Below the pieces are notes generated by a model, which searched no databases, had not been told where the DNA came from, and saw only the letters and a list, made by a program, of their open reading frames with translations. A stretch of 56,222 nt of DNA from an uncultured bacterium (GTDB taxonomy: Bacteria; Patescibacteriota; Minisyncoccia; Phycocordibacterales; UBA2100), in the NCBI GenBank assembly GCA_903824595.1, contig CAIJXH010000008.1, positions 1 to 56,222 on the forward strand, written 5' to 3'. A program made the position numbers and the translations under genes. Every line of letters begins with the position of its first letter. Positions within the stretch are counted from its first letter, which is position 1. Shown here in pieces: positions 18,225 through 39,413 of the stretch.

Positions 18225-18250
18225 CGACAAACGTGCATGGTGTATTGAGG

Positions 18251-20650: not shown

Positions 20651-20685
20651 GTCTGTCTCATTGTATATCGGGTATGGTGCAAGCG

Positions 20686-21162
20686 CTATGATCGCATTCT
20701 AGCAAGGTGTGTAATGCCAACCGCAATCGCGTCGTACTCGTCGTCGTGTGTGATGGGTTTCTGGATACGGAGCAGGACACGGATCATTTTGGCGACGGCG
20801 CGCTTGTCGGCATTGCCTGATCCTGCTGCTGCTGATTTCACTTCGCCGGGCGAGTATTCGAAGAGGGGAATGCCAAGCACGGAGGCGACGTTCATGAGTG
20901 CGCCGCGCACCTCGGCGACATGCATCGCGGTTTTTTGGTTTTTGGCGAAGTACAATTTTTCCATCGCGATTGCGTCTGGTTTATATTCGCGAGCAAGGCG
21001 GTCGCACGCATCGGCGACCGCCGCCAGCCGCTCTGGGAACTCATCTTTTGCCGACGTTTCGATGCAATCCGAGTAGAGTAGCCGCTCTTTCCCGCCCCGC
21101 TCCTTCTCCACCACTGCCACGCCGCAGCGACCGTATCCAGGATCAATGGCGAGGACTTTCAT
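20686..21162 (-). CDS. ruvC: crossover junction endodeoxyribonuclease RuvC
   Basis: MKVLAIDPGYGRCGVAV... and a DEYDAIA catalytic region. Confidence 0.93.
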   Translation of the reverse strand: MKVLAIDPGYGRCGVAVVEKERGGKERLLYSDCIETSAKDEFPERLAAVADACDRLAREYKPDAIAMEKLYFAKNQKTAMHVAEVRGALMNVASVLGIPLFEYSPGEVKSAAAGSGNADKRAVAKMIRVLLRIQKPITHDDEYDAIAVGITHLARMRS

Positions 21163-21258
21163 TGCGGTATTGTAGCAGGTTGCGATTGGGGAAAACTTTT
21201 CGTATATTTCACTCCTCGCATCGTGTACACTTAGATGTGTGATGTGCGCGAAAGGCTT

Positions 21259-21837
21259 ATGAACAACACATCATCAAGTCAAACAACGGAAACGACGCCG
21301 GTCGTGTCTGTCGCTCCGCAGAGTCAGAGTTTTTTCGCATTCTCCTTGTACGATGTTCTCGTTCTCGTGGGCGTGTCCTCTATCATTGCCGCTCTCGTAT
21401 ACATAGGTCGCAAGCTTCAGATTCTCGATGATCTCAGGGCGACGGTGCACAAAATAAAAGTGAACGTGAAAGTCGTGAGCGATTATCTTGTAAAACATCA
21501 CAACAAATTCAATCCCGCGGAACTGCAGGCATATTCGCCGCTCGCGTTGACCATGCAAGGCAAGGAATTTGTACAGCAAATCGGCTTCGATAATGCGCTG
21601 TCTCAGCATAAGGCAGAATTTATGGATTTTATTGGCGGCGAAAATCCCAGATTGAAATATGACGTAGAGGTCGCTGCGATAAAATCGATCCACGCGCTGT
21701 ACCAGAAACCGTTTATGGAGTTTCTAAAAGTGTTTCTGTACAACAATCCCACCCGCAGCATCGAAGACGTCGCGCCAACTCTCGGTGTGTACGTCAGGGA
21801 TATGTATCTTGGTGAGCATCCCGAGATTACCCAATAG
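21259..21837 (+). CDS. hypothetical single-pass membrane protein
   Basis: ORF 21235..21837. GAAAGG lies upstream of the ATG at 21259. One TM helix (FFAFSLYDVLVLVGVSSIIAALVYI). Confidence 0.6.
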   Translation: MNNTSSSQTTETTPVVSVAPQSQSFFAFSLYDVLVLVGVSSIIAALVYIGRKLQILDDLRATVHKIKVNVKVVSDYLVKHHNKFNPAELQAYSPLALTMQGKEFVQQIGFDNALSQHKAEFMDFIGGENPRLKYDVEVAAIKSIHALYQKPFMEFLKVFLYNNPTRSIEDVAPTLGVYVRDMYLGEHPEITQ

Positions 21838-21861
21838 CTCGCCCTATGACGGAGACATTAT

Positions 21862-21890
21862 AGCGACCGCATCCGGGATCAATGGCGAGG
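21862..21890 (-). repeat. 29-bp duplicate (27/29) of ruvC codons 4-13
   Basis: AGCGACCGCATCCGGGATCAATGGCGAGG here versus AGCGACCGTATCCAGGATCAATGGCGAGG at 21126-21154. There is no start codon and no downstream ruvC homology. Confidence 0.8.
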
Positions 21891-22029
21891 GTGTGTATGA
21901 GTGAGTGTAACAATAAAGTACCACCTGTCGCCAAATCAGTAGAAATGCGTGAATGGAGGCCATAAAATGCCTGTCATTCACGGGATTTTGGCAAAAAGAC
22001 GTGAATGGTCGTCCTGACTACGTCCTCAC

Positions 22030-22112
22030 AATTGGTGACCAACGCCGCCTGCCGCCAAAGCATCCCCGTCTTTCGCGAGAAAGGGGTGTGGAGGATTGGG
22101 GTGGGGCAATAG
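22030..22112 (+). repeat. 83-nt repeat, copy R1
   Basis: Manual alignment with 24039-24121 gives 73/83 identical, and all 10 differences are transitions. Confidence 0.85.
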
Positions 22113-22320
22113 AGTCTCCGTGCGAGTTACGAACACGTACATACGACCTGTTTCGCGGCTCACTTTTTCTCGCAAAGAATCGGTGTATTATGTGTGGGTG
22201 TGGGTTTTGATTCTGCTAGGGAGAAAATTGCGACGCATGTTTGAATAAAATAAAAATAGCAAATATTTCACTTGCACGTATTTTTGAAATTTTAATAGTA
22301 CTACGATTAATAGCCATTTT

Positions 22321-23826
22321 ATGGAAAAATTTAAAAGGGGGGGCAAGGAGATGCGAATGCTGGTTACTCAAGATTGCAATTATAATTGCGTCATGTGTCA
22401 TGGTGAGGGGTTGCAAGAAGAAAAAGAGGCAACGCTTTCGCCTGATGATTTTGCTTTTATTTTTCGTGTTGGAAAAGAGCGACTCGGTATGGACACCACG
22501 ACTCTCACTGGTGGCGAGCCTTTGTTTAGAAAAGATATTGTAGAAATAGCAAAGAATCTTCACGAAGAGGGTGCAAAAATAACATTGACTACAAATGGGC
22601 GTTTACTGACACGGAGGATGGAGGTAGGTAAGTACTTAGATAGGATCAATGTTTCTGTACACACTATGAACGAGGAAAAGTATGAAGATCTTGTTCAGGT
22701 GAAAAATAGCTTTCATTCAGCGATGCATAATCTGAGGGCTTTTAGGCAAGCGTATCCAGAGGTGTCGATTGTTTTAAACACCACTTGTATTCGCGGATTT
22801 AATTCTGAACCTGATGATTTTAAGTCGCTGGTCGAGTTTGCGAAATCAATACGGGCATCTATCAAATTGATAGAATTATTTCCGCCAGACCGCACTGACG
22901 TAGTAAGTCTCGAAGAGGTGACCACTATACTTACTGCCCTGGGTTTTGTACCAACGGAGACAGAACTGCGCAAAAGAAAATTAAGTGATGGTCAAACAAC
23001 TGTCTCATTGACCCGGATATTTTGTGCGGAAGCCGTTAATAGTGGTGATCCTGCCGCTTTTTGTAATCAACAGAATGATGTGTTCATCTCTCCAGATGGA
23101 TTTGCAAAGCCGTGTCGCTCAGATAGTATGGAGGTGGACTTGAATTCGGCATTACGTAGTAGAAATGAGGACGAGATGGAAAGGCTTATCAAACACGCAT
23201 TTGCTGAAACAGGCCGCAGATGTGTTTACGATAGGAATAACCTATCGGAAATGGAGGCGCCCGAGACATTGACCGAAAAGTACGGCGAGCGTGCGTATGT
23301 GTTGGAAAAACTGGAAGCGTATCGAGGTGTTGACGCAGAAGAAGATGTGATGCGTTTAGATGTGGTTCAGTTTGTTAAGGATCACGAGAACTGTTTCGAT
23401 AGGAGTCTATCGACCGGACATGTCACTGGCTCGGCGCTTGTTGTTGATCCGGGTTTCAATCAAACCTTGCTTACCCACCATATGAAGCTGGATCGATGGT
23501 TTCAATTTGGCGGACATTCCGATGGTGACTGGAACACATTGCGCGTTGCGATGCGAGAGGCGCTGGAGGAGTCTGGGTTGAAGTCACTTCGTCCATATTC
23601 GGGTAACATCTTTAGTATTGATGTTCACCCGATTCCCGAGCGAGGAGATGAACCGGAGCACAAGCATTATGATGTTCGGTTTTTACTCATCGGAGACCCA
23701 CGCGAACCCTCAACGACTAGCAGTGAATCAAAAGAGTTGCGCTGGGTGAATCTTGATGATGCGGCACGTTTGAATCCAAGTGATGCAATGCGCAGAATGG
23801 TTGAAAAGGCGAAACGTCTCAAATAA
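22321..23826 (+). CDS. MoaA-like radical-SAM domain fused to a C-terminal Nudix hydrolase domain
   Basis: N-terminal half: CNYNCVMC (CX3CX2C), TGGEPLF, TLTTNG, NVSVHT and a distal Cys triad (FCAEAV...AFCNQQNDVFISPDGFAKPC). C-terminal half: Nudix box GGHSDGDWNTLRVAMREALEESGL. Alternative starts at 22351 or 22357 lie behind AAGGAG. Confidence 0.85.
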   Translation: MEKFKRGGKEMRMLVTQDCNYNCVMCHGEGLQEEKEATLSPDDFAFIFRVGKERLGMDTTTLTGGEPLFRKDIVEIAKNLHEEGAKITLTTNGRLLTRRMEVGKYLDRINVSVHTMNEEKYEDLVQVKNSFHSAMHNLRAFRQAYPEVSIVLNTTCIRGFNSEPDDFKSLVEFAKSIRASIKLIELFPPDRTDVVSLEEVTTILTALGFVPTETELRKRKLSDGQTTVSLTRIFCAEAVNSGDPAAFCNQQNDVFISPDGFAKPCRSDSMEVDLNSALRSRNEDEMERLIKHAFAETGRRCVYDRNNLSEMEAPETLTEKYGERAYVLEKLEAYRGVDAEEDVMRLDVVQFVKDHENCFDRSLSTGHVTGSALVVDPGFNQTLLTHHMKLDRWFQFGGHSDGDWNTLRVAMREALEESGLKSLRPYSGNIFSIDVHPIPERGDEPEHKHYDVRFLLIGDPREPSTTSSESKELRWVNLDDAARLNPSDAMRRMVEKAKRLK

Positions 23827-23929
23827 GCCACAGCTCACAAATAAGAGGCGACACAAACTGTCGCCTCTTTGCTTATAAAAGCAAGGTTGTTTACAGAACA
23901 AATACACTGGCCGTGCTACCATTTCGGCT

Positions 23930-23998
23930 ATGTCCATTCCCGACAAATACTCCGCGGTGTGGGTGTCGCATTCGTCGATGGATATGAAGTGTTGGTGA
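23930..23998 (+). pseudogene. displaced 5' fragment of the PD-(D/E)XK nuclease gene
   Basis: 23930-23981 matches 30731-30782 at 50/52. It reads MSIPDKYSAVWVSHSSMDMKCW*, and an indel after codon 17 breaks the frame. Confidence 0.8.
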
Positions 23999-24038
23999 GG
24001 TTGTTTGTGAGAAAAGGGTTTGCTGTTCGCCCGTAATT

Positions 24039-24121
24039 AATTGGTAGCCAACACCACCCGCCGCCAAAGCATCTCCGCCTTCCGCGAGAAGGGGGTGTGG
24101 AAGATTGGGGTGGGGCAATAG
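24039..24121 (+). repeat. 83-nt repeat, copy R2
   Basis: See copy R1 at 22030-22112. Confidence 0.85.
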
Positions 24122-24227
24122 TAATGTGTGCGGGATGAGTGTGGCATATTGTGTCGCACGGGATTCATTACGAGCTTCATAATATCTAAACTTTGGATAT
24201 TGACTTATTCAATACACGCTGTAGTGT

Positions 24228-24449
24228 ATGAAGAAGTCGACCCAGACCAAGGAATATGCCGTGTTTGTACAGATGCTTCGTGCGGCGCGGATTGATGCGG
24301 GGTTGACCCAGGCGCAAGCGGCAAAGAAACTCGATCGCCCGCAGTCCCATATTTCCAACGTGGAAACGGGGCAGCAGAGAGTAGATGTGATAGAACTGAA
24401 GCGGTTTGCAAAAATGTACGGGAAAGATATCAATTACTTTATAAAATAG
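24228..24449 (+). CDS. XRE-family helix-turn-helix regulator
   Basis: LTQAQAAKKLDRPQSHISNVETGQQRVDVIEL is a classic Cro/C1-type HTH. Confidence 0.85.
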   Translation: MKKSTQTKEYAVFVQMLRAARIDAGLTQAQAAKKLDRPQSHISNVETGQQRVDVIELKRFAKMYGKDINYFIK

Positions 24450-24452
24450 TTT

Positions 24453-25133
24453 ATGTTTTGGAACAAAAAAACTGAAAATAATTTAGACTCAACAATGATT
24501 GAGCTTGGACGTGAAATTGAAAGGGGGCTGCTTGCCTTAAGTGCAATAATAATTCAACATTGGGAGTATGAAGAAAATGACTACTATAAAGCTGTATCCA
24601 TAACGATGGATAATTTGCTGAAGGATAAAACATTGACTGATGCAGGCAGATTGGAAAAAGCAAAAGATATACTCGATTGGTCAAAGGCGTATAGAAAATT
24701 TATAGACGCTTCGTCAGCTAAATACGGGGATTTTATTCTTACAAGATTGAACCAGTTTGAGGAGATGTTAGAGCGCCTGCCAAAAACAAAGCCGCATGAA
24801 AAAGTTCAGGAATGGATAAAGCTTACTCGCGATTTGTGTAAAATTCGTGCTAGCGAAATTATCGCTATTGAACTTCATATAGAAAAAAATGAATTTATAC
24901 CGAAACTTGTCATTAGAGACGGGGGAAATTCTGAACAAAACATAACCGAGGAAGAAACAAATCAATTTGCACATCTAGTAGCTACTTACGGTTCTGAGCG
25001 ACAGCTTGCTTATGAAGCCAAAAAGAAAATCGAGCCAATGAGATCCAATTTAGCTGAGAGTATGTTTGGAAAACTTAATGATTACATGGAAGGTGGTAGT
25101 TATTCTAGTCTGTCTAGTCTGTTCATGAAATAA
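24453..25133 (+). CDS. hypothetical protein (predicted all-helical), AT-rich gene
   Basis: 226-aa ORF that starts 3 nt after the XRE stop. No motif recognised. Confidence 0.65.
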   Translation: MFWNKKTENNLDSTMIELGREIERGLLALSAIIIQHWEYEENDYYKAVSITMDNLLKDKTLTDAGRLEKAKDILDWSKAYRKFIDASSAKYGDFILTRLNQFEEMLERLPKTKPHEKVQEWIKLTRDLCKIRASEIIAIELHIEKNEFIPKLVIRDGGNSEQNITEEETNQFAHLVATYGSERQLAYEAKKKIEPMRSNLAESMFGKLNDYMEGGSYSSLSSLFMK

Positions 25134-25144
25134 ATTTAAACACT

Positions 25145-25711
25145 ATGAGTGGAGTGTTGAGATCAAGCCTCAATGGTGTGAATTTGCAAACCATGACAAG
25201 AGAGGTGCTAAGGATTACGGACGGATTTTTTTCGATGAGACAAAGAATTATATCTTTGTTGAAAGATCTTGAGTATGAAAAAGAGCTTTTAAACGTTACT
25301 TATACGTACGAAGATTATGAAACAGGAAACGGAGAATGTTGTGTTGAGGAGTTATTAACATTTCCAAACTATCAACTCATTTTCGATAAGTATTACGACA
25401 GATACCTCCAGACATATATTGGAAGCAAATCGATAGTTCCTCGCAATAACATTTTAGCCGAACTCCAGAGAATGGAATCTGATGGCTTAGTAATGGTTCG
25501 TATTCAAGAATGTGAGAAAGTATTTAGTCCCGATGTTATTGATTTTCGACCTGAAAAAAGAGAAAATTTCAAGACAGAAAGTATTGTTTTAACAACGAGA
25601 GGTAAAAGCAAATGGGGATACTCTTTGCATAAAGCATGGGAAAACCCGATTTCAACCGGTATAGCTATAAGCGCCCTTCTTGTGTCTATTATTGCGCTAT
25701 GGTGCAGATAG
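25145..25711 (+). CDS. hypothetical protein with possible winged-helix region and C-terminal TM anchor
   Basis: NNILAELQRMESDGLVMVR...IVLTTRGKSKW resembles a wHTH. The C-terminus ISTGIAISALLVSIIALW is hydrophobic. Confidence 0.6.
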   Translation: MSGVLRSSLNGVNLQTMTREVLRITDGFFSMRQRIISLLKDLEYEKELLNVTYTYEDYETGNGECCVEELLTFPNYQLIFDKYYDRYLQTYIGSKSIVPRNNILAELQRMESDGLVMVRIQECEKVFSPDVIDFRPEKRENFKTESIVLTTRGKSKWGYSLHKAWENPISTGIAISALLVSIIALWCR

Positions 25712-25762
25712 GGGTAATTGATGTTGGGGTCTGACCCCACTATCCATTATGCTGCCCGTGTA

Positions 25763-26059
25763 TCATCCTCTCCCAACTCCAAAAAAGAAATATGCAATGA
25801 GTGTCGCAGCCAGACCAGTCGAGAATGTGATTAGTGCCCCTCCCCACCATGTACTGTGCCAGTCGTCTACATGCGATTGATGGGGAATAACATGTTTGTT
25901 ATTTCTAAGGGCTGCATCTGTAATCTCACCCTGATTATCAAGAAAATCTGCTTCGCCTATTAGTGTATTGTTTTTCGCGTCCATGCCGTTTATAGCTGCG
26001 CCATGTGTCACTCTAACGAACGCGGGTCTTTCATGTTTTGAATCCTCATCTTCTTTCAT
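25763..26059 (-). CDS. hypothetical small tail-anchored membrane protein
   Basis: 98-aa ORF with C-terminal WWGGALITFSTGLAATLIAYFFFGV. It converges on the hairpin GGGGTCTGACCCC at about 25725-25737. Confidence 0.5.
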   Translation of the reverse strand: MKEDEDSKHERPAFVRVTHGAAINGMDAKNNTLIGEADFLDNQGEITDAALRNNKHVIPHQSHVDDWHSTWWGGALITFSTGLAATLIAYFFFGVGRG

Positions 26060-26114
26060 GGGGCATATTATGTATCAAAAATCAAAGGAAACAAGAATGC
26101 ATACACTTGCGGAG

Positions 26115-26142
26115 TTGACCTTGTGCGCACATTGTATATACT
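26115..26142 (+). promoter_or_regulatory. promoter of the dinJ-like gene
   Basis: TTGACC, a 16-nt spacer, then TATACT. The ATG is 6 nt downstream with no SD. Confidence 0.45.
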
Positions 26143-26148
26143 AGATGC

Positions 26149-26397
26149 ATGACCACACTCAATGTCAGAATAGAAGAGAAAACGAAACTTGCGGCGAGTA
26201 AGGCATTGGCAGATATTGGGCTCGATTTGTCGTCGGGTGTGAAGTTGTTTCTCCATCAGGTGGTAACGGAAAAAGGATTGCCGTTTACGCCCACCAAGAA
26301 TGCCGCCGTTATTCGTGCCAAGTGGGACGCCGAAGTTGTGCAAGCTCGCGCAGGGCGAAGGTATGCGAATGCCAAGGATGTTTTGAGAGAGGTGTAG
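26149..26397 (+). CDS. RelB/DinJ-family antitoxin (no adjacent toxin gene)
   Basis: LNVRIEEKTKLAASKALADIGLDLSSGVKLFLHQVVTEKGLPF matches the DinJ ribbon-helix-helix pattern. Confidence 0.75.
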   Translation: MTTLNVRIEEKTKLAASKALADIGLDLSSGVKLFLHQVVTEKGLPFTPTKNAAVIRAKWDAEVVQARAGRRYANAKDVLREV

Positions 26398-26426
26398 GTG
26401 TTTACAGGTGAGCCAGAAAGTAATTT

Positions 26427-26444
26427 GCCCCGCTTTCGCGGGGC
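26427..26444 (+). terminator. GC-rich hairpin after dinJ
   Basis: GCCCCGC-TTTC-GCGGGGC. There is no clear T-run. Confidence 0.4.
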
Positions 26445-26539
26445 GAGGCCGAAGCCATATATACCAATATAGTAACAACTGAAAGCGGGAAGTCAATCTC
26501 ACTTGAAAACCGTCCGAAAAAGCCCATACTTGGGCGAAT

Positions 26540-29299
26540 ATGGCAATCAATTGGCGCGACATTCAGGAGAGGGCGACGATTTTCGCTCACAAGTATGCCG
26601 ATGCCAAAGATGAGGATCGTGATGCGAAGCCTTTTTGGAAAGACTTGCTTGAACTCTACGGTGTGGACCCGCGTCAAATCGGAGCGTTTGAGGAGCGCGT
26701 ACGTATTCACGGCAGGCCTGGGGTGGGGAAGATAGACTACTTCGCGCCGCATAAGTTTATCATCGAGCATAAGTCGCGCGGCAAGGATCTTGGTGTTGCG
26801 TATCGACAAGCGATGGACTATTTCGACGCGCTTTCGAAGACAGATCGTCCACGCTACATTATCGTTTCTGATTTTGCGCGTTTCCATGTGTACGATCTTG
26901 AAGCTTCCGAAGAAAATCGTTTCGTTGAATTCTCTCTTGAAGAACTTCCGAAGCGCGTGCGCCAATTCGCATTCTTTGCCGACGAAGATGTGCGCGTGTA
27001 CAAACCCGAAGAGCCAATCGACGTGAAAGCCGTTCGCTCTATCGGTAGGCTCCATGATGCGCTCCGTTCTTCCAACTATTCCACGGCGCACCTCTCGCCG
27101 CTTCTCACGCGTCTCGTCTTCCTGTTTTTCGCCGACGACACCGGTATTTTTGAGAACAACGCTATTCGCGAGTATCTCGATGCAAACACCAATCCCGACG
27201 GCTCTGACATTGGCGACAAGCTCAATGGCATATTCCAGGTACTTGATACGCCACAAGAAATGCGACAGACGACGCTCCATCCAGTGCTCGCGAATCTACC
27301 ATATGTGAACGGGGGATTGTTTGCCGCTCCGCTTCCCGTGGTCTTTGTGTCACGCGAAGTGCGCGAGACTATCCTTGCATGCGCCGCCTTCGACTGGTCG
27401 CGTGTGTCTCCTGCCATCTTCGGTTCGATGTTTCAGTCGGTGATGAACGAAAAAGAGCGACACGATCTCGGTGCACACTACACGAGCGAAACCAACATTC
27501 TCAAGGTTATCAACGGCCTTTTTCTCGAAGAACTACGCACCGAGCTCGAAGCCGCAAAGACCAACCGCGAAAAACTCCTTGCGCTCCAAGAACGATTGGC
27601 CAAAATAACCCTGCTTGATCCTGCGTGTGGTTGCGGCAACTTCCTCGTGGTTGCGTATCGCGAATTGCGCAAGGTTGAGAATGATGTCATTGCGCGACTT
27701 TACAACAAGACGAGTACCACTAAAGTGGAGGCGGGTCACACGGTGTTGCCGCTCGGTGTCAATCTCAAAACTATCTCCAAAATGTCGGTCGAGCGCATGT
27801 ACGGCATCGAAATCGATTCGTTCCCCGCCGAAGTCGCTAAACTCTCGCTCTGGCTCGTCGATCACCTAATGAACGTCGAGCTCGGCAAGCTCTTCGGTCA
27901 GCCACTCACCAAGCTCCCGCTTACCGAAGCGCCGCACATCGTTCAAGGCAATGCTCTGCGCCTCGATTGGGAATCGGTCGTGCCCAAAGATAAACTCACC
28001 TACATTCTTGGAAACCCACCGTTTCTCGGTTCGCGGGTGATGAGTCTAGAACAAAAGGGAGATATTGAAACAATATTTGGGGATACGCGCGGTGTAGGAA
28101 ATTTAGACTATGTTGCTGGTTGGTATTTAAAAGCAGGAGACTATATACAAAACACTCGCATAACATGTGCGTTTGTTTCTACCAACAGTATCACGCAAGG
28201 CGAACAAGTTAATGTTTTGTGGAAATTTCTCATCGAACAACGTGGTGTACATATCCGCTTTGCGCACCGTACGTTCAAATGGAGCAATGAAGCGACAGGG
28301 AAAGCCGCCGTGTTTTGCGTAATTGTTGGTTTTGGACTGAGTGAAATTAAACAACCTAGAATATATGAATATGCTGATATCGGCGGCGAGGCAAAAGAAG
28401 TTAAAACACAGCACATCAATCCTTACATGGTCGATGCTCCCGATGTTTTTATAGAAAGCAGAAACAAACCATTGAATGGTAATGTGCCCCGGATGAGTGT
28501 TGGTAACTTACCAATTGATGGCGGCATCTATTTGTTCACGACCGAGGGAAAAGCAGAGTTTCTGAAACGAGAGCCACAATCGAAGAAATATTTCCGAAGG
28601 TGGATCGGCTCCGACGAATTTTTGAATGGCTGGGAGCGTTGGTGTCTGTGGCTCGGAGATGCGAGTCCGAGCGATCTTAGAGATATGCCAGAAATAATGA
28701 GGCGTATTGATGCGGTAAAACAGTTTCGTCTATCCAGCAAGAGACCTGCTACCAGAAAATTAGCTGAAACACCAACGCATTTCCATCTTGAAAATATGCC
28801 GACCGGAAACTATTTAGTCGTACCAAAAGTCTCATCAGAGCGTCGTCGCTACATTCCCATTGGTTTTGAACATCCTTCAACGTTTGCTAGCGATCTTGTT
28901 TTTATCGTGCCGGAAGCAACTCTCTATCACTTCGGCGTTCTCGAAAGTGAAATGCATATGGCGTGGATGCGGGTGATCGCAGGTCGTTTGAAATCGGACT
29001 ATCGGTACTCAAATACCATCGTCTACAACAACTTTCCATGGTCGGAGGACTCAACCGACGAGCAGAAAAGGGAAGTGGAAACGGCGGCACAGGCGGTACT
29101 CGACGCGCGCGCGGCTCACGCGGGCGCGACACTTGCCGATCTCTACGATCCGCTCACCATGCCCAAGGATTTGCTCGATGCTCACCACCACCTCGACCGC
29201 GCCGTAGATGCCTGCTACGGCAAACGCAAATTCAAGAACGAGCCGGAGCGGCTTGAGTACTTGTTCGAGAAGTATAAAGAATTGATAGCCAAGAAATAA
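26540..29299 (+). CDS. MmeI-like type IIL restriction-modification enzyme (nuclease + N6-adenine methyltransferase + TRD in one chain)
   Basis: 919 aa. N-terminus MAINWRDIQERA...AKPFWKDLLELYGV...DYFAPHKFIIEHKSRGKDL (D...EXK). Methyltransferase motifs LDPACGCGNFL and GNPPFLG. Confidence 0.88.
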   Translation: MAINWRDIQERATIFAHKYADAKDEDRDAKPFWKDLLELYGVDPRQIGAFEERVRIHGRPGVGKIDYFAPHKFIIEHKSRGKDLGVAYRQAMDYFDALSKTDRPRYIIVSDFARFHVYDLEASEENRFVEFSLEELPKRVRQFAFFADEDVRVYKPEEPIDVKAVRSIGRLHDALRSSNYSTAHLSPLLTRLVFLFFADDTGIFENNAIREYLDANTNPDGSDIGDKLNGIFQVLDTPQEMRQTTLHPVLANLPYVNGGLFAAPLPVVFVSREVRETILACAAFDWSRVSPAIFGSMFQSVMNEKERHDLGAHYTSETNILKVINGLFLEELRTELEAAKTNREKLLALQERLAKITLLDPACGCGNFLVVAYRELRKVENDVIARLYNKTSTTKVEAGHTVLPLGVNLKTISKMSVERMYGIEIDSFPAEVAKLSLWLVDHLMNVELGKLFGQPLTKLPLTEAPHIVQGNALRLDWESVVPKDKLTYILGNPPFLGSRVMSLEQKGDIETIFGDTRGVGNLDYVAGWYLKAGDYIQNTRITCAFVSTNSITQGEQVNVLWKFLIEQRGVHIRFAHRTFKWSNEATGKAAVFCVIVGFGLSEIKQPRIYEYADIGGEAKEVKTQHINPYMVDAPDVFIESRNKPLNGNVPRMSVGNLPIDGGIYLFTTEGKAEFLKREPQSKKYFRRWIGSDEFLNGWERWCLWLGDASPSDLRDMPEIMRRIDAVKQFRLSSKRPATRKLAETPTHFHLENMPTGNYLVVPKVSSERRRYIPIGFEHPSTFASDLVFIVPEATLYHFGVLESEMHMAWMRVIAGRLKSDYRYSNTIVYNNFPWSEDSTDEQKREVETAAQAVLDARAAHAGATLADLYDPLTMPKDLLDAHHHLDRAVDACYGKRKFKNEPERLEYLFEKYKELIAKK

Positions 29300-29306
29300 A
29301 TTCAAA

Positions 29307-29324
29307 CCCCGCCTTTCGGCGGGG
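29307..29324. terminator. shared hairpin between convergent genes
   Basis: CCCCGCC-TTTC-GGCGGGG, between the MmeI-like gene (+) and the 46-aa ORF (-). Confidence 0.5.
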
Positions 29325-29331
29325 TCGTGTG

Positions 29332-29472
29332 CTACTTTGCTGTTCCGTAGCCGCGTCTCGGCATATGCTCGACAACATAACGTTCGGGATTGCCACTTCG
29401 AGCTTTCCTAACCGGGACAAGTTCCCCGGTCTTCGCATCTCTGCCTATTTTGAATGACTTTGATTTCGCCAT
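29332..29472 (-). CDS. small basic protein (46 aa)
   Basis: Manual translation gives MAKSKSFKIGRDAKTGELVPVRKARSGNPERYVVEHMPRRGYGTAK*. It resembles a small conserved protein family recalled from plasmid and TA contexts. Confidence 0.4.
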   Translation of the reverse strand: MAKSKSFKIGRDAKTGELVPVRKARSGNPERYVVEHMPRRGYGTAK

Positions 29473-29567
29473 ACGATTTGTTTATCCAGTAATTCTCCGG
29501 AGCGCACGCCAGATTGAACATTATTGTATGGTGAGGATTTATCCATGTCAATATTGTGGACAATTTG

Positions 29568-29595
29568 TTGACAAGAATCCTGACGTATGGATAAT
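29568..29595 (+). promoter_or_regulatory. promoter of the HTH-Panacea gene
   Basis: TTGACA, a 16-nt spacer, then GATAAT. The ATG at 29602 is 6 nt downstream, which suggests a leaderless start at MSQSTLL.... Confidence 0.5.
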
Positions 29596-30369
29596 AAAAA
29601 CATGTCTCAATCTACATTGCTTCGGGAGTTGCGGGAGGGGGAGGGGTTGGCGCAGGAAGCGGTCGCCAAGGAGCTTGGTGTGTCGCGCCCGACCTATATC
29701 GCGCTCGAACAAGGGAAGCGGGAGCTTACGCTTGGCGAGGCGCAGAGTGTGGCGCGGATGTACGGCGTCCCGCTCGATGTGATCGCGTCGGGCAAGAAGC
29801 CGGCGGAAATAGCGCTTCCCAAAGGCAAGGAGAAAAAAGAGAAGCCGTACGTGCGTATTAGTGTGCCGCAGGAGCGGATCGACAAATTCAAGCAGGTGCT
29901 TTTGTATCTTTTGGGGAAGACGGCGGGCAAGCCCAATGTGGGCGAGACGGTGCTGTACAAGCTCCTCTACTTTATCGATTTTGACTACTACGAAAAGTAC
30001 GGGGAACAGCTCATGGGGTTGCGGTATATTCGCAACCATTTTGGTCCGTCGCCGCGTGCGTTTGGGGCGGTTGTGCGTGAGATGGAGAAGGCGAACGAGA
30101 TAGAAAAAGTGAAAAGCACCTATTTTGCGCACGACCAAAAGAAATATTTGCCGCACAAGGTTGCCGACTTGTCTGTTCTTTCGGGGCGAGAAGTGGAAAT
30201 GATTGATGATGTGCTCTCGCGGTATGGCGACAAAAACGCGTCGGAACTTTCCGCGCTCACACACGAAGATATGCCGTGGATGGCGGCAAAGCAAGGCCAA
30301 GATATCCGGTATGAGCATGTGTTCTATCGCTCCGACAAGCTATCGGTTGGTACCTATGACGAGCTATAA
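29587..30369 (+). CDS. XRE-HTH fused to a DUF4065 (Panacea/SocA-like) antitoxin domain
   Basis: The HTH is LAQEAVAKELGVSRPTYIALEQGKREL. The Panacea-type core is VLYKLLYFIDFDYYEKYGEQLMGLRYIRNHFGPSP. The alternative start is 29602. Confidence 0.8.
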   Translation: MDNKNMSQSTLLRELREGEGLAQEAVAKELGVSRPTYIALEQGKRELTLGEAQSVARMYGVPLDVIASGKKPAEIALPKGKEKKEKPYVRISVPQERIDKFKQVLLYLLGKTAGKPNVGETVLYKLLYFIDFDYYEKYGEQLMGLRYIRNHFGPSPRAFGAVVREMEKANEIEKVKSTYFAHDQKKYLPHKVADLSVLSGREVEMIDDVLSRYGDKNASELSALTHEDMPWMAAKQGQDIRYEHVFYRSDKLSVGTYDEL

Positions 30370-30381
30370 ACGCGACCGACT

Positions 30382-30726
30382 ATGGAATTTGGCGAGACAT
30401 CCGAGTTTGCGCACGATTTGAAGCGGTTGAGAAAGAAATATCTGTCACTCGACGAAGATGTGACTGCTCTGCGAGAGGCGATCGAAGTGTCTCCGAGTGG
30501 AGATGGGGCAAAACATTGCAACTGCATGCGTCGTGCGGGAGATGTCATCGTCTACAAAATCCGTCTCGCATGTCGGTACTTACAGGCATCGCGCATGCGC
30601 GTGATATACGCGCATCATGTGAAAGAGCGAAAAGTCGTATTCATCGAGCTGTATTACAAAGGCGAACATGTGCACGAGGATGGTGGCAGGATTACGGCGT
30701 ACCTGAAATCGAATATGCTACAGTAA
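30382..30726 (+). CDS. RelE/ParE-superfamily toxin
   Basis: FAHDLKRLRKKY...VYKIRLA...RMRVIYAHHVKERKVVFIELYYKGE follows the RelE/HigB-like pattern. It starts 12 nt after the antitoxin stop. Confidence 0.7.
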   Translation: MEFGETSEFAHDLKRLRKKYLSLDEDVTALREAIEVSPSGDGAKHCNCMRRAGDVIVYKIRLACRYLQASRMRVIYAHHVKERKVVFIELYYKGEHVHEDGGRITAYLKSNMLQ

Positions 30727-30730
30727 TTCC

Positions 30731-31576
30731 ATGTCCATCCCCGACAAATACTCCGCCGTGTGGGTGTCGCATTCGTCGATGGGGGATTTTTTGAAGTGTC
30801 CAAGGGCGTACTTTTTGCACAATGTCTATAAGAATCCGAAGACGGGCAGGAAGATGACGCTCGTCGCGCCGCCGCTTTCGCTAGGGGCTGCGGTGCATAC
30901 GACGCTCGAAGATTTGAAACACCTTCCCGTGGAAGAGCGCATGAAGCGCGATTTGTTGGCGGATTTTGAGAAAGCGTGGGAGGCGGTGTCGGGCAAAAAG
31001 GGAGGATTTACGAGCGAGGAAGAGGAGGCAGCGACCAAGGCGCGCGGCAAGGCGATGGTCGAGCGTGTGGTGCAAAATCCCGGACCAATCGCGCGAAAGA
31101 CGGTCAAGCTTCCCGCCGCACACAACAACATGCCGCCCAATTTCTACCTCTCCGAAGAAGACAACATTATCCTCTGCGGACTCATCGACTGGATCGAATA
31201 TGTGGAAGCCGACGACAGTATCCGCGTCTTGGATTTCAAGACAGGCAAGCATGAAGAGTCGGGTGATTCGCTCCAATTGCCGATCTATCTTCTGCTTTTG
31301 AATGCGCTCCAGAGGCGCCGCGTCAGCGGCGCCTCGTACTGGTATTTGGAAAAAGACGACGCGCCGATTGTGGTGGATTTGCCTGATGCGGCGGAAGCGC
31401 GTGAAGCAGTGCTCGCGGTGGCGAGGCGCGTGAAAGAGGCGCGGGAGAAAAAAGAGTTTGCGTGTCCGCGCGGCGAGCAGCAGTGTTTCGCGTGTCGCCC
31501 GTATGAAAAAATCTTGGCAGACGAAGCGGAATACATCGGCGTGGGCGGGTACGGACAGGATGTATACCTCGTGTAA
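30731..31576 (+). CDS. PD-(D/E)XK (RecB/Cas4-like) nuclease with four-Cys cluster
   Basis: N-terminal CPRAYF, core IDWIEY...VLDFKTGK, QLPIYLLL, and C-terminal CPRGEQQCFAC. Confidence 0.8.
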   Translation: MSIPDKYSAVWVSHSSMGDFLKCPRAYFLHNVYKNPKTGRKMTLVAPPLSLGAAVHTTLEDLKHLPVEERMKRDLLADFEKAWEAVSGKKGGFTSEEEEAATKARGKAMVERVVQNPGPIARKTVKLPAAHNNMPPNFYLSEEDNIILCGLIDWIEYVEADDSIRVLDFKTGKHEESGDSLQLPIYLLLLNALQRRRVSGASYWYLEKDDAPIVVDLPDAAEAREAVLAVARRVKEAREKKEFACPRGEQQCFACRPYEKILADEAEYIGVGGYGQDVYLV

Positions 31577-31616
31577 CAAAAAGGAGATTGGCGGTGCCAA
31601 TCTCCCGTAATTATGG

Positions 31617-31817
31617 TTATGGCTTTTTTTTCCACTTGGCGTTTGGTTGTTTACGCCAATCTGTGCTCCATTCGGTGATGTTTATTCGTCTGCCCTTTCC
31701 TACGCCTGTTTTAGCGGGCGGTGGCGCAACTCCTGATCCGTTGCATTGTTTGCAGTCGATCCCCGCGCTGTCGCGTCCCGTCCCGCCACAAAATGCGCAT
31801 GCACTCGCTTCATCCAT
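31617..31817 (-). CDS. small DnaJ-type zinc-finger protein
   Basis: CAFCGGTG and CKQCNGSG repeats (CxxCxGxG) with a basic tail. Confidence 0.5.
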   Translation of the reverse strand: MDEASACAFCGGTGRDSAGIDCKQCNGSGVAPPPAKTGVGKGRRINITEWSTDWRKQPNAKWKKKP

Positions 31818-31881
31818 CTTTCACACGTCCATAATTCACTGGTGAACTTGTCTCACTGCATTGTACCATTGTGTTTTGCTG

Positions 31882-32412
31882 CTATTCCGCATTTGTATAC
31901 ACTTCCTCCACGTCGTCGTGCGCGTCGAGCTGCTCCAAAATCTCCATGAGACGTGTGTGGTCGGAGGGCGAGAGTGGTACTGTCGTGGCGGGCTCGTAGC
32001 CGTCGTGCGTTTTGGTGAACGCCCACAGCGCGCTTCCTTGTGCAGCGAGCGCGAGACCATTTTCGGTAAGTAGATGCTTGATTTCTTGCGCCGTGCGATT
32101 GCGACTGTCTGTCAGTGTCTCGATGATGATCGCTGCGCCGCCTGGACCGTACGTCTCATAGGTAATCGCTTCCATTGTCGCGGCGTCTGCTGAAATTCCC
32201 TTAGCGACCGCACGCTCGATGTTCTCCTTCGGCATGTTGGTTTTCTTGGCGGTCTCGATGATTGCGCGGAGGCCCGGCAGTGTCACGTCGCCATTGGCTT
32301 TCTTGCTTTCCACGGCGATGCGTTTGCCGAGTTTGCCCCATACTTGGCTTTTGGCACCGTCATTCGCACCCTTCTGCCTCTTTATCTGCGACCATTTATT
32401 ATGTCCTCCCAT
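31882..32412 (-). CDS. yebC: YebC/PmpR-family transcriptional regulator
   Basis: MGGHNKWSQIKRQKGANDGAKS... is the canonical YebC N-terminus. The start is set at 32412, not at the track ORF start of 32475. Confidence 0.88.
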   Translation of the reverse strand: MGGHNKWSQIKRQKGANDGAKSQVWGKLGKRIAVESKKANGDVTLPGLRAIIETAKKTNMPKENIERAVAKGISADAATMEAITYETYGPGGAAIIIETLTDSRNRTAQEIKHLLTENGLALAAQGSALWAFTKTHDGYEPATTVPLSPSDHTRLMEILEQLDAHDDVEEVYTNAE

Positions 32413-32448
32413 GCGGCGCATTCTATAAGAAATCGGGCGAAAAGGAAA

Positions 32449-32467
32449 CGGCCGCTCGTGGCGGCCG
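32449..32467 (-). terminator. intrinsic terminator after the kinase gene
   Basis: CGGCCGC-TCGTG-GCGGCCG, followed on the minus strand by a U-rich tract. It lies just upstream of the TATAGAAT hexamer in front of yebC. Confidence 0.6.
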
Positions 32468-32471
32468 CTTT

Positions 32472-33017
32472 TCACAAGGCAAGAATGTCGGAGGGAACTG
32501 GATCACATGGGTTGATGTGGCGAACGACATCGAACACACCCTCTTCTTGGAGATGGAGCGCCGCGAATAATCCGTGGATGCGTGTGCATGTCCCAATGCG
32601 TTGCTCACGCGCATATGCAGTGTAAATCGGTTTCTTGCACTCGATCGGCTTCCGATCGAAACTCCACGCGATATTGGTATCGAGTGGGGTCACAAAGTGC
32701 CAAGCTGCAAGACAGTCGACGCGCATTTCCCGCACCTTTTGCGCGATGCGCACGCGTTCTTCTGGAGGTCCGTTCCATGCGTCTAGAATAATGGTGACGT
32801 CGGGATTCTCAAGGCGAGCCGCAAGCTTCCGCCATAGAATATCCCAGGCGGCCTCATGGGTACCTGAATAGGCATCGGCGTAGATGCTCCCACATAGTTC
32901 CATCAGAATGGCATCTCGACTTACAATGTGCACGTCAGGGTGCGCGCGCACCACACTCTGGGCAAACGTAGATTTTCCCGCACACTGCGGACCCACTGTC
33001 AGGATGACTCTTCTCAT
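32472..33017 (-). CDS. P-loop kinase, AAA_33 / polynucleotide-kinase-like
   Basis: Walker A GPQCAGKST and SRD about 20 residues later, as in T4 Pnk-type and zeta-like kinases. Confidence 0.75.
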   Translation of the reverse strand: MRRVILTVGPQCAGKSTFAQSVVRAHPDVHIVSRDAILMELCGSIYADAYSGTHEAAWDILWRKLAARLENPDVTIILDAWNGPPEERVRIAQKVREMRVDCLAAWHFVTPLDTNIAWSFDRKPIECKKPIYTAYAREQRIGTCTRIHGLFAALHLQEEGVFDVVRHINPCDPVPSDILAL

Positions 33018-33165
33018 TTCTCCACACTCCTTTCATGTTTTCCGTCGAGCACAGTAGCACGCCGCTAGCATAGATTCAACGATGCGCCGAAGCGACGCTC
33101 AATTCCTTGTGCGCTCTGCGATTTAGTGCTTTATAGGCATCTACAGGTCACCATAAGTAGGGGAT

Positions 33166-34407
33166 TTAGAAATTCCCAATCTGGTCGGCGTCAATAGGCG
33201 AGCGCAGAGCGAGTCGTGGTGCGAGTGCGGCGAGTCGGCTGTCGGCATCGTCGGGAATGTGCGGCAGGTCGGCAAGCATGAGCCCGGGGTCGTTGCAACT
33301 TTCCAGCGCGATTTGCGCGATGCGGCGTATTTCTTTTTCATACGCGGGCTCACTCTTGAGGAATGTGGTCTTGCGGCGGATTTGCGCATCGGTGCATCCG
33401 GGCTGGTATGCCGGATCGCCCGTGCATGAAATGAGTCGCGCGACGCCGAGCATGATAAGTGCGGTCTCTCGCGGCGGTCGCGCAATAATCTCGCGCACGT
33501 CGGTGAGTGCGAGCCAGTCGAGAATATGGTGCGCGGATTCGTGAAGCGTAATGTCTGCGCGTATGGTCGTGTGCGTTTTCTGTATGTTCTGATGTGTCTT
33601 GATGAGCGCGTCGAGCACAGAAAGCGGCTCGATCATTTCGTGAAGATTGTCGTCGGGAGTGTTGGTGGTCAGGCGACTGGTGTTCAGGTTCATTGTTTGT
33701 TCGACGATGGTTTGAAACATGCGTGAGTTGCGGTGGTTGTTGGGCATGATGCTGATCGTGTGATTCTCGCACGCGGCGAGCGCGCGCACGGCGGGCTGGA
33801 TGTCTTCCATGGTGACGATCTTCGGGCGCTTCGTTTTTCGCGCACGGACGCAATCAAAAAGTTTGATAAGTGCGTCGTCGGGTTTGCAGGTGGGGTCGGA
33901 GAGAAACGCGACAAGTGTCCGCGCGTCTTTCGCCGTGCATCCTATTTTTTCCAAATGGCGCGCCAATGTCTTTTCCGACACCTCCGCGAGATATTCCAGC
34001 TTTTCATCGACAGCGTTGAAATAGGCATCAAGATCAATCGTCGCATCTCCGTTTTCGTTAGTCGTTATTGTCTTCGATTTCTCCTCGCGTATCGCCTCAA
34101 TAGGCGACATGCCGAGATCTTTGTGCGGAAAATAATTCCACACCGCGCCGAGGATTTGCAGGTTGGTGGTGAGAATGTTGTTGGGCAGTTGTTTATGGAT
34201 GAGTACATCACATACGTCATTCTGAAATTTCTTGAACGGATAGTCCTTGCGCGAATTCACGCCGACGTGTACGACGCGAATCGCCGCCTCAAAAGAAAGC
34301 GTGCTTGGGAAATCGTACTCCCGCGCCATGGTCTCGTAGTCGCGGCGTATCGCGGTGCGCAGCTCTTCAATCGGGGTGGTCATGTCGGGGTCTTGGTATT
34401 TGTACAT
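33166..34407 (-). CDS. hypothetical 413-aa protein
   Basis: Long uninterrupted ORF carrying the WNYFPHKDLGMSPIE motif, which is shared with ORF 55531..55827. Confidence 0.75.
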   Translation of the reverse strand: MYKYQDPDMTTPIEELRTAIRRDYETMAREYDFPSTLSFEAAIRVVHVGVNSRKDYPFKKFQNDVCDVLIHKQLPNNILTTNLQILGAVWNYFPHKDLGMSPIEAIREEKSKTITTNENGDATIDLDAYFNAVDEKLEYLAEVSEKTLARHLEKIGCTAKDARTLVAFLSDPTCKPDDALIKLFDCVRARKTKRPKIVTMEDIQPAVRALAACENHTISIMPNNHRNSRMFQTIVEQTMNLNTSRLTTNTPDDNLHEMIEPLSVLDALIKTHQNIQKTHTTIRADITLHESAHHILDWLALTDVREIIARPPRETALIMLGVARLISCTGDPAYQPGCTDAQIRRKTTFLKSEPAYEKEIRRIAQIALESCNDPGLMLADLPHIPDDADSRLAALAPRLALRSPIDADQIGNF

Positions 34408-34482
34408 AGTGGCATTTTAGTGTGTATGTGGTGTCTTCTCAAATCGTTTGCGGTAGGTGGGCAGGTTTGGTACGCTACGTAT

Positions 34483-34773
34483 ATGGAGCATCTTTTGGTG
34501 AATCTGCCGGTGAGTATTGCGAAGCAAGGAAGACGGTTTGTCGCATACTCTCCCGCGCTTGATATTTCGACGAGCGGCAAAAGCGAAACCGACGCAAAGC
34601 GAATGTTCGGAGAACTGGCGCGGCTTTTCATTGAAGAATTGAAAGAAGCTGGGACGCTCGATCAAGTATTGACGGAACTGGGTTGGCGCAAAATAACAAC
34701 TCGTCCGTGTGCTTCACAGTGGACGCCGCCGCGCGCGTACAGCGTGCCGGTGCGGATGCCAGTGGCGGCATAG
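34483..34773 (+). CDS. HicB-like (UPF0150) antitoxin-family protein
   Basis: LPVSIAKQGRRFVAYSPALDISTSGKSETDAKRMFGELARLFIEELKEAGTLDQVL follows the HicB-fold pattern. Only the last 96 codons of track ORF 33733..34773 are plausible. Confidence 0.6.
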   Translation: MEHLLVNLPVSIAKQGRRFVAYSPALDISTSGKSETDAKRMFGELARLFIEELKEAGTLDQVLTELGWRKITTRPCASQWTPPRAYSVPVRMPVAA

Positions 34774-34868
34774 TTATATTGTCGCCTGGCATCATCACCA
34801 ACAATCTCCGCACGCTCGGCATTTCCCGTGAGGAGTATTTGGATTTTTTGAAGCGGTAGTGATTATCG

Positions 34869-35219
34869 CTACGACTGTTTCACTCCCACTCCCGCAAACC
34901 GCGTGTCGATCCTCTCAATCTTTCTCTTCAGTGCGTCGTTCACATCCACACCGAGGCGATGGGCGAGGATGAGGGTGGTGATGATGACGTCGGCGACTTC
35001 GAGTGCGACGGCGTCTTTGGTGTCGGTAGAAGTTTTCTCGGCGCGTTGGAATCCATAGAGCGCGATGATGGCATCAGCGAGTTCGCCGGTTTCTTCGGAG
35101 AGTTTGGCGACTTGCCAAAAGACACGCTCTCGCCCATTTGTTTTGATGAGATTTATGTGTTCAAGTTTTGCATCTTATTGTGCGATCCATTGCACGAGAT
35201 CATCAGAAATCGGTTTCAT
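34869..35219 (-). pseudogene. MazG-like NTP pyrophosphohydrolase with in-frame TAA at codon 15
   Basis: Manual translation gives MKPISDDLVQWIAQ*DAKLEH...KLSEETGELADAI...ALEVADVIITTLILAHRLGVDV.... The stop is at 35175-35177. Confidence 0.65.
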
Positions 35220-35229
35220 AGCAGCAGCG

Positions 35230-35261
35230 TTATCTGCGACCATTTATTATGTCCTCCCATG
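35230..35261 (-). repeat. 32-bp perfect duplicate of the yebC 5' end
   Basis: TTATCTGCGACCATTTATTATGTCCTCCCATG is identical at 32382-32413 and 35230-35261. This copy reads MGGHNKWSQITLLL*, and its TGA overlaps the mazG-like ATG. Confidence 0.9.
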
Positions 35262-35335
35262 GGGGTATTCTAGTGCGGAGGCGAGAATTACTCAAATATT
35301 TCAATTGTGCACAAAGATGTTACAGTGTTGCTTCA

Positions 35336-36799: not shown

Positions 36800-36804
36800 A
36801 AATG

Positions 36805-36830
36805 AACCCTCGCGACAATGTGCGAGGGTT
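36805..36830. terminator. hairpin between convergent genes
   Basis: AACCCTCGC-N8-GCGAGGGTT. A T-rich tract follows on the minus-strand side. Confidence 0.5.
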
Positions 36831-36845
36831 CGACGGGCGCTCGGA

Positions 36846-37685: not shown

Positions 37686-37794
37686 GATTCACCTCTCCTC
37701 TTCGTGCATTTGAACTATGTTCCGATGATGTGTATACCACGTGATGCGGCATAAAACAATCGGCGTATAATCCGTGTTCTGCTATACTCTCGTC

Positions 37795-38268: not shown

Positions 38269-38270
38269 TT

Positions 38271-39281: not shown

Positions 39282-39413
39282 GGTGATGTAGCCTGTTGGC
39301 GACCATTGGTGGACGGCAACGGGGCGCAAAAACGCTTGACTTTTATTTTCTATATGCTACAGTACTAGGAGATGGTGGAGATTCCTCCACTTTTTTCATA
39401 GCACATCTCTCAT

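Follow-up and report, generated by a model that had tools for sequence, protein, structure and literature searches.

How does about 14 kb of defence and toxin–antitoxin (TA) genes come to lie between housekeeping genes that normally adjoin, with no recombinase gene detected among them? The question is raised by contig CAIJXH010000008.1 (assembly GCA_903824595.1; forward strand 1–56,222; this whole 56,222-nt stretch is called the window hereafter), which stems from a Candidatus Kaiserbacteria genome (Paceibacteria, Candidate Phyla Radiation, CPR) recovered from lake metagenomes. The inserts that separate ruvC from yebC, and others close by, are bordered by second, truncated copies of the ends of the genes beside which they lie, and these copies differ from the intact genes as alleles do. 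We hold with moderate confidence that DNA of related strains was added serially, in part in nested fashion, by recombination anchored in short homology at gene ends, through either Campbell-type single crossover or homology-facilitated illegitimate recombination (HFIR).

Duplicated gene ends around the inserts

We compared the window with 167 loci around yebC relatives, supplied by one YebC scan each of GTDB genomes and metagenome contigs; the nearest are Kaiserbacteria metagenome-assembled genomes with at most 81% YebC identity. In these loci the order pilB > ruvB > yebC > ruvC > PBP1 is kept class-wide, with dnaN and dnaA next in line on the opposite strand. In the window, dnaA (15542–16906), dnaN (17124–18224) and a GC-skew sign switch at ~17 kb place the island beside the replication origin, 4–25 kb from dnaA and the skew switch. 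The yebC–ruvC junction, available in 144 loci, has a median length of 45 bp, stays below 150 bp in 106, reaches at least 500 bp in 23 and is at most 7.2 kb long, so that the 10,719 bp given by the gene calls for the window exceed every relative. Lengths of at least 500 bp are also found at the ruvB–yebC junction (49 of 115 loci; 5.9 kb in the window) and at the pilB–ruvB junction (21 of 97 loci; 2.5 kb in the window). All three junctions are insertion hot spots, chiefly within Kaiserbacteria proper, and their content in relatives is mixed (VIT1, Fic/DOC, YafQ, RelB, helix-turn-helix (HTH) regulators, ABC proteins and a Type ISP-like restriction–modification (RM) system). The locus is a flexible-gene hot spot inside an origin-proximal backbone.

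Five pairs of direct repeats, 29–103 nt in length, lie in or beside this region, and in four of them one copy is the end of an intact gene: the 5′ ends of ruvC, of a Cas4-like nuclease gene and of yebC, and the 3′ end of pilB (Table 1). The fifth pair consists of the two copies of an 83-nt element, D1. In the window as a whole we found six direct repeats of at least 28 nt and at least 87% identity, compared with zero in dinucleotide-preserving shuffles (n = 20). The truncated copy always lies across the cargo from the intact gene, arranged either as 5′ fragment, cargo and whole gene or as whole gene, cargo and 3′ fragment. While the inner borders of the repeats are arbitrary (codon 10, 12, 23 or about 530), the outer borders coincide with gene borders, namely exactly with the pilB stop codon, exactly with the nuclease ATG and with the yebC −10 box; this is expected if the similarity between donor and recipient stops where the neighbouring genes differ. 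An earlier note on this DNA, made from its letters alone, had described ruvC and yebC, both on the minus strand, as split by about 10.7 kb and a further 2.8 kb as inserted in the yebC 5′ end, with host-gene-end duplicates of ruvC, the nuclease gene and yebC around the inserts and the same pattern at pilB and tRNA-Gly. The gene calls and repeat searches bear out this anatomy throughout. The same neighbourhood was said to include an ABC-F gene, which is not conserved beside yebC in relatives.

D1 and nuclease repeats are interleaved (22030 < 23930 < 24039 < 30731) and not nested. Whichever piece came later therefore brought homologues of both resident flanks, as would be expected of a second allele of the D1-to-nuclease slot, taken from another strain. 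Both D1 copies have sharp borders, and D1b begins 43 nt after the nuclease remnant. D1a folds as a long hairpin (22048–22105), and all seven differences from D1b at paired sites preserve pairing, one of them via changes on both sides. D1 was not found in the relatives' loci. We considered D1 as a coding gene end and rejected it: the best open frame gives five synonymous and five non-synonymous differences, a frame with six synonymous differences contains a stop, and the hairpin fits better.

The 18 nt at the 3′ end of tRNA-Gly(TCC) occur again 163 nt further downstream, with 145 nt between the copies. This duplicate resembles the att scar that an integrative element, since lost or degenerated, would leave.

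Contigs of other assemblies and samples are 99.98–100% identical to the window over 16124–22737, 22100–25734 and 28412–42412, which covers every junction, that from the nuclease remnant to D1b (in L089) included. Contigs with identical genes occur in the BUCK21 lake assemblies, in GCA_903933615.1 and in JGI 3300023311. Two assemblies break at the edges of D1a (22028 and 22100), the sole hint of population variation.

The Cas4-like nuclease has more than 5300 homologs, the best 120 of which show 69–84% identity and are ~280 aa long, and it is as conserved as YebC. The context of its gene varies: in two lineages the neighbour is a PIF1-type helicase; in locus L178 the flanking genes are RNase Y and trigger factor; and in locus L101 (57% nuclease identity) the gene stands antisense between yebC and ruvC, with 38 nt between its start codon and that of ruvC. 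Judged by this conservation, it is a resident gene of the lineage that piece 3 used as landing site, and its abundance in Paceibacteria together with the proximity of a PIF1-type helicase suggests housekeeping DNA repair over defence. The 38-nt spacing in L101 therefore provides a family-level empty site for the 9.6-kb ruvC–nuclease stretch of the window.

Allelic copies and competing explanations

In the coding duplicates, seven of the eight differences are synonymous (pilB 4/4, nuclease 2/2, ruvC 1/2), with a Poisson-binomial P of 9e-4 versus random substitution. Both copies were therefore in working genes while they diverged, and did not arise by duplication in situ and subsequent decay. 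These differences, and homology that ends exactly at the pilB stop and the nuclease start, also support the proposal of the earlier note that each insert carries a replacement gene end; the DNA that came in brought with it a gene-end allele of a related lineage. Remnants of this kind occur at the same junctions in four relatives as well: L017 and L115 carry one of the pilB 3′ end (in L115 after a two-gene HTH module) and L068 and L098 one of the ruvB 3′ end, and control searches with internal gene segments matched true paralogs only.

A short anchor common to insert and resident DNA, with donor-allele differences, is what integration at a single homology predicts, and it is found here. In the homology-anchored reading, an incoming fragment, entering by DNA uptake, would match the resident chromosome only over the first 10–23 or last 33 codons of a conserved gene, and homologous recombination would join it at this gene end by one of two routes: (i) one Campbell-type crossover, the fragment having been circularised, or (ii) homologous pairing at one end of a linear fragment and an illegitimate joint at the other, as in HFIR. 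Both routes yield the observed structure. The repeat lengths of 29–103 nt speak for this reading, as they come near the shortest homologies generally cited for RecA-dependent recombination. The resident gene would retain an intact end and a truncated second copy would remain beyond the cargo. Gene ends would be targets without recognition by an enzyme, because two divergent genomes are alike within conserved genes and cease to be so at the borders of these. We infer an order of events that starts from a divergent ruvC/nuclease pair about 40 nt apart, as in L101. D1 and a radical-SAM–Nudix gene would have entered between the two genes; a 0.7-kb piece would then have joined the ruvC 5′ end; and the 6.7-kb piece from D1b to the Panacea partner open reading frame (ORF), as an alternative D1-to-nuclease allele, would have joined the nuclease 5′ end. 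The entry of the kinase/orphan/MazG piece into the yebC 5′ end and of the MNT–HEPN pair into the pilB 3′ end would be separate events.

Several points weigh against homology-anchored integration. The test of synonymous bias comprises only eight substitutions. The ruvC repeat of 29 nt is short for homologous recombination. Single-crossover insertions with direct repeats should revert easily, yet five are retained. The genes for recA and DNA uptake lie outside the window, in which only pilB was seen. Most inserts of relatives are without detectable flanking duplicates, and other routes may also fill the hot spot. The sharp borders of D1 on both sides and its conserved hairpin also suit an enzyme recognition site, and the 18-nt duplicate of the tRNA-Gly 3′ end, a classic integrase footprint, indicates that integrases have acted in this genome. 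Empty sites, which the earlier note expected in relatives, stand at the family level, in relatives of at most 81% YebC identity with single gene ends and short gaps. For the species itself, exact-protein contig look-ups with ruvC, yebC, nuclease and a 226-aa ORF gave no empty site, alternative junction or circular form: all contigs retrieved were identical to the window and carried the integrated form only. Look-ups with the full-length radical-SAM–Nudix, MmeI and o164 products returned no match, and the YebC scans of GTDB genomes and metagenome contigs no relative above 81% identity.

Site-specific integration is in our estimate unlikely. The pieces would here be degenerate integrative elements with attL and attR over a gene end, whose integrase was lost or acts in trans, host Xer included. 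Direct repeats at both ends do overlap the target gene end, and the insert restores that end, as in islands that target tRNA genes or dusA; the tRNA-Gly duplicate is a classic att scar inside the window, D1 is a discrete hairpin with pairing-preserving differences, and an Xer-type recombinase gene is located at 5725–6642. However, no recombinase gene was found in or beside the pieces. In accord with the earlier note, four libraries of hidden Markov models (Pfam, NCBIfam, PADLOC and PHROGs) gave no recombinase, transposase or relaxase match in 21163–35229 or 40980–41813, and no integrase, transposase, relaxase or Xer homolog occurs among 193 gap ORFs of relatives. The Xer-type gene, the only recombinase detected in the window, has mgsA and an exonuclease III-type gene (Exo_endo_phos) as neighbours, a housekeeping context, and its product scores 128 bits against an integron-integrase cutoff of 265 bits; IntI and attC hairpins of an integron cassette array were not found, and D1, of which there are only two copies, showed no attC-like terminal core sequences on inspection. 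No motif of 7 nt or more, and nothing above chance, is common to the six repeat families (18–103 nt), which argues against a single sequence-specific enzyme: a small CPR genome would have to provide for several distinct specificities. Integrative mobile elements exploiting Xer, with dif-like flanks near the terminus, do not fit the lack of a common repeat motif or the position of the island at the origin, and independent att pairs would not readily give the interleaving of the D1 and nuclease repeats. Site-specific insertion, as well as the small circular cassettes mobilised in trans that the earlier note envisaged and for which the contig look-ups gave no evidence, is less likely than homology-anchored integration. 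The observation of that note is confirmed, and its interpretation partly supported.

A dedicated CPR route of cassette exchange, with no recombinase gene on the cassette and with gene termini and hairpins like D1 as landing pads, appears distinctly unlikely. Small defence or addiction cassettes would bring a replacement gene end plus their own promoter and would be joined by a trans-acting enzyme or by the competence/RecA machinery. If cassettes were exchanged in this way, the origin-proximal backbone would be a programmable accretion site, loosely like an integron platform.

Insertion in situ with long target duplication (Nobusato, Furuta), in which both copies come from the recipient's target and one decays after insertion of RM or TA genes, we consider quite improbable. 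Such inserts carry RM or other selfish genes, are smaller than 20 kb and contain no mobility gene (Furuta, Abe & Kobayashi 2010, NAR 38:2428, PMC2853133, citing work of 2000); they are flanked by direct repeats, some tens to about a hundred bp long, of which genomes with an empty site have one copy, and the hosts are mostly naturally competent bacteria (PMC2853133). Much of this description suits the locus. Repeats of 44, 52 (67 with the indel), 83 and 103 nt exceed the 30 bp of the published definition, with the ruvC repeat just under it at 29 nt, pilus/competence-type machinery is present, and the 6.7-kb piece carries R and M genes (MmeI-type) without a mobility gene; the other pieces carry TA or other genes and no RM system. 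A dead copy made in situ should, however, gain mostly non-synonymous changes, and the bias among the eight differences, small as this sample is, contradicts an origin of both copies from the recipient. Repeat borders at a stop or start codon are those that two alleles with different neighbours give, and codons 2–3 of the ruvC remnant differ from ruvC.

Little probability attaches to scars of chromosomal rearrangement, by which inversions or translocations near the origin would have broken gene ends, with the duplicates as by-products of repair and the cargo as relocated chromosomal DNA. The conserved nuclease gene occurs in three or four different contexts, and ABC-F, PPIase and a PurM-like gene look housekeeping and sit in backbone gaps. 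Positions 0.8–12.8 kb of L178 are colinear with 9.8–13.9, 30.7–31.6 and 44.9–46.9 kb of the window, everything between being missing: L178 has the contiguous order UPF0102, trypsin-like protease, HU, RNase Y, nuclease, trigger factor and pyrophosphatase, without both halves of the origin backbone that flank the nuclease gene in the window. In other relatives RNase Y is not beside yidC, nor trigger factor beside pilB. No single rearrangement connects the three layouts; larger rearrangements therefore also shaped the region, and the difference between window and L178 points to a large-scale rearrangement around the origin. The bounded cargo, by contrast, is mostly orphan, TA, RM or nucleotide-modifying, is mostly without counterpart in the relatives' loci and is partly of foreign composition (GC content at third codon positions, GC3, 0.32–0.42 in part of the cargo versus 0.45–0.71 in backbone genes). 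The orientation of the remnants is in five of five cases the one predicted by insertion with a replacement end, and rearrangement leaves the allelic, synonymous divergence unexplained.

That strain variants were strung together via shared sequence during assembly is hardly credible, since, although other assemblies of the population are fragmented here and two break at D1a, repeats of this length and with mismatches are too short and imperfect to mislead k = 141 assemblies, and each junction is spanned by at least one contig of a different assembly or sample.

Cargo, resident genes and neighbouring elements

Defence and addiction cargo as listed in the earlier note, i.e. RM, TA modules, kinase, MazG and the radical-SAM–Nudix gene, is present in the pieces (Table 1), with the exception of the nuclease gene, which belongs to the residents. 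The radical-SAM–Nudix protein of piece 2 matches MoaA models at 1e-46 (below cutoff) and models of pVip (prokaryotic viperin) at 2e-18, and its gene has a GC3 of 0.42; it could be a nucleotide-modifying defence enzyme. A search of IMG/VR gave no close relative of this protein or of the nuclease. The 200-aa orphan of piece 1 has no match in Pfam, PADLOC, NCBIfam or PHROGs and no homolog in the 167 loci. In piece 3, the order of RM gene, Panacea antitoxin and partner ORF is shared with L027, where it lies at a different junction.

Table 1 Positions in the window of repeats, pieces, remnants and genes. For gene-end repeats the copy in the intact gene is given first
Feature	Position	Strand	Remarks
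ruvC 5′ repeat	21126–21154 / 21862–21890		27/29; intact copy is ruvC nt 9–37
D1 repeat (D1a / D1b)	22030–22112 / 24039–24121	+	83 nt; 88%
Nuclease 5′ repeat	30731–30782 / 23930–23981		50/52; second copy reaches ~23995 past a 6-nt deletion
yebC 5′ repeat	32382–32425 / 35230–35272		93%; includes TAGAAT −10 box
pilB 3′ repeat	41814–41916 / 40877–40979		99/103
tRNA-Gly(TCC) 3′ 18-mer	11729–11746 / 11892–11909
ruvC	20686–21162	−	intact backbone gene; Pfam RuvC 5e-38
Piece 1	21163–21861	+	~0.7 kb; promoter-like TACAAT just upstream of ruvC, and orphan ORF
200-aa orphan ORF	21235–21837	+	piece 1; antisense to ruvC
ruvC 5′ remnant	21830–21904	−	core 21862–21890; reads (I)HTLAIDPGCGR; start codon decayed to ATA
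Piece 2	D1a to nuclease remnant		holds radical-SAM–Nudix gene
MoaA-like radical-SAM–Nudix fusion	22321–23826	+	Pfam Radical_SAM 1e-22, NUDIX 2e-6
Nuclease 5′ remnant	23930–23995	+	codons 1–23, 6-nt deletion; 2/2 differences in the 50/52 core synonymous
Piece 3	43 nt before D1b to 30730	+	6.7 kb; adjoins nuclease 5′ end
HTH gene	24228–24449	+	piece 3
Two orphans	24453–25133, 25145–25711	+	piece 3; GC3 0.32–0.34
RelB	26149–26397	+	piece 3
MmeI-type RM, fused R–M enzyme	26540–29299	+	piece 3
HTH-Panacea antitoxin	29587–30369	+	piece 3
Panacea partner ORF	30382–30726	+	piece 3
Cas4-like PD-(D/E)XK nuclease	30731–31576	+	PDDEXK_1 2e-25; landing site of piece 3
Bidirectional terminator hairpin	31582–31606		downstream of yebC
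66-aa CxxC ORF	31617–31817	−	downstream of yebC; no Pfam match
yebC	31882–32412	−	intact backbone gene; 176 aa; start MGGHNKWSQIK
Piece 4	32426–35229	−	all genes co-oriented with yebC, downstream of retained native yebC promoter
Terminator hairpin	~32440–32470		piece 4
AAA_33 kinase	32472–33017	−	piece 4
Orphan all-alpha 413-aa protein	33166–34383/34407	−	piece 4
MazG-like gene	~34880–35215	−	piece 4; in-frame TAA at codon 15
yebC 5′ remnant	35230–35272	−	native −10 box, ATG, 10 codons; reads MGGHNKWSQITLLL followed by a stop
ABC-F	35336–36799	+	lineage-specific gene in ruvB–yebC junction
279-aa orphan	36846–37685	−	ruvB–yebC junction
PPIase	37774–38268	+	ruvB–yebC junction
ruvB	38271–39329	−	backbone gene
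pilB 3′ remnant	40877–40979	−	last 33 codons and stop; 33/33 aa identical; 4/4 differences synonymous
Piece 5	40980–41813	−	MNT/HEPN TA pair downstream of pilB, co-oriented
HEPN	41117–41494	−	piece 5
MNT	41491–41787	−	piece 5
pilB (T2SSE ATPase)	41814–43505	−	backbone gene

The stop of the yebC remnant overlaps the ATG of the MazG-like gene (ATGA), and a promoter-like site lies at 35295–35267. The MazG-like gene, with its early in-frame TAA, is a pseudogene unless its translation begins at a Met further on. Consensus scans for promoters and terminators were no richer than in shuffles and served only to place individual sites. Four mechanical ORFs are probably spurious: 26068–26562(−), where the real gene is RelB on the plus strand; 21953–22210(+), where there is no real gene; 31588–31845(+), where the real gene is the 66-aa ORF on the minus strand; and 40824–41800(+), where the real genes are MNT and HEPN on the minus strand.

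We examined the 413-aa orphan of piece 4 as a hidden recombinase and rejected it: AlphaFold predicts an all-alpha fold (pLDDT 82) for which the PDB offers no match at E < 0.25, and although its motif WNYFPHK.LG..SP.E resembles the tail of DDE transposases, the spacing is different and a beta sheet is missing. Only five homologs were found, none with a Pfam domain, in unrelated contexts. The N-terminal domain of this protein (invariant WNYFPH.D.G..P.E) recurs as a 98-aa ORF at 55531–55827 (−), in the low-GC right end of the window, and the two genes share a 29-nt DNA match (34112–34140 / 55574–55602).

The block of ABC-F, 279-aa orphan and PPIase (35336–38268) is without flanking repeats and is not found in the ruvB–yebC junction of relatives. 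Upstream of ruvB, between it and pilB/AIRS, lies a structured non-coding element of ~140 nt (39408–39560, −). It is conserved in at least 12 Kaiserbacteria (L011 6457–6608, L013 8720–8870, L015 6846–6980, L024 8673–8823 and others), with a consensus fold of 34 pairs, 13 of which show compensatory changes, and matches no Rfam family at gathering score or E ≤ 1; it is a candidate for a new non-coding RNA or leader. At the left end of the window, positions 1–3600 have a GC content of 55–58% and mechanical ORFs with low-complexity, implausible translations; searches there for rRNA or other Rfam families found none.

Related insertions and gene gain in CPR genomes

Insertion with long target duplication is the closest published phenomenon, and the kind of insertion seen here is in this sense already known. 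The likeness lies in inserts below 20 kb, RM or selfish genes, the absence of a mobility gene and the flanking repeats. At the present locus, by contrast, the two copies differ by synonymous changes and resemble diverged alleles, the repeats are ends of genes with a start or stop codon as outer border, 20 kb contain five events that are stacked or interleaved, only one piece carries an RM system, the host belongs to the CPR, and empty sites are known only at the family level.

HFIR is known from laboratory selections, with anchors that usually exceed 150 bp and with substitution or deletion as the usual outcome. At the present locus, as judged from its sequence, DNA was instead added and the duplicates stayed in place. 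In natural transformation, one short anchor suffices for HFIR or single-homology (Campbell-type) integration to add foreign DNA (PMC3240628). The locus agrees with these processes in that no element-encoded recombinase is needed and the donor allele replaces the anchor region. Islands at gene ends (tRNA 3′ ends, the dusA 5′ end) carry a replacement end and use a dedicated tyrosine integrase with one specific target. They share with the present pieces a direct repeat that is a gene end, an insert that restores the gene and a truncated copy left behind; here, an integrase was not found and several unrelated targets are used. With flexible islands and defence islands the locus has in common a position fixed across the family, a varying content and an enrichment in defence and TA genes, whereas the preservation of individual insertion footprints is unusual.

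New in this work are insertions without an integrase that are stacked in a CPR genome, together with evidence that the gene-end copies are allelic. Little has been documented of how CPR/Patescibacteria, with their tiny genomes and few classical mobile-element genes, acquire defence genes. In this locus at least five separate gains have left footprints that can be read to the base pair, and these point to gene-end homology and not to an integrase. If this holds in general, DNA uptake and recombination at the borders of core genes would rank as a main way in which CPR bacteria acquire genes, which would explain why variable genes cluster between particular conserved genes.

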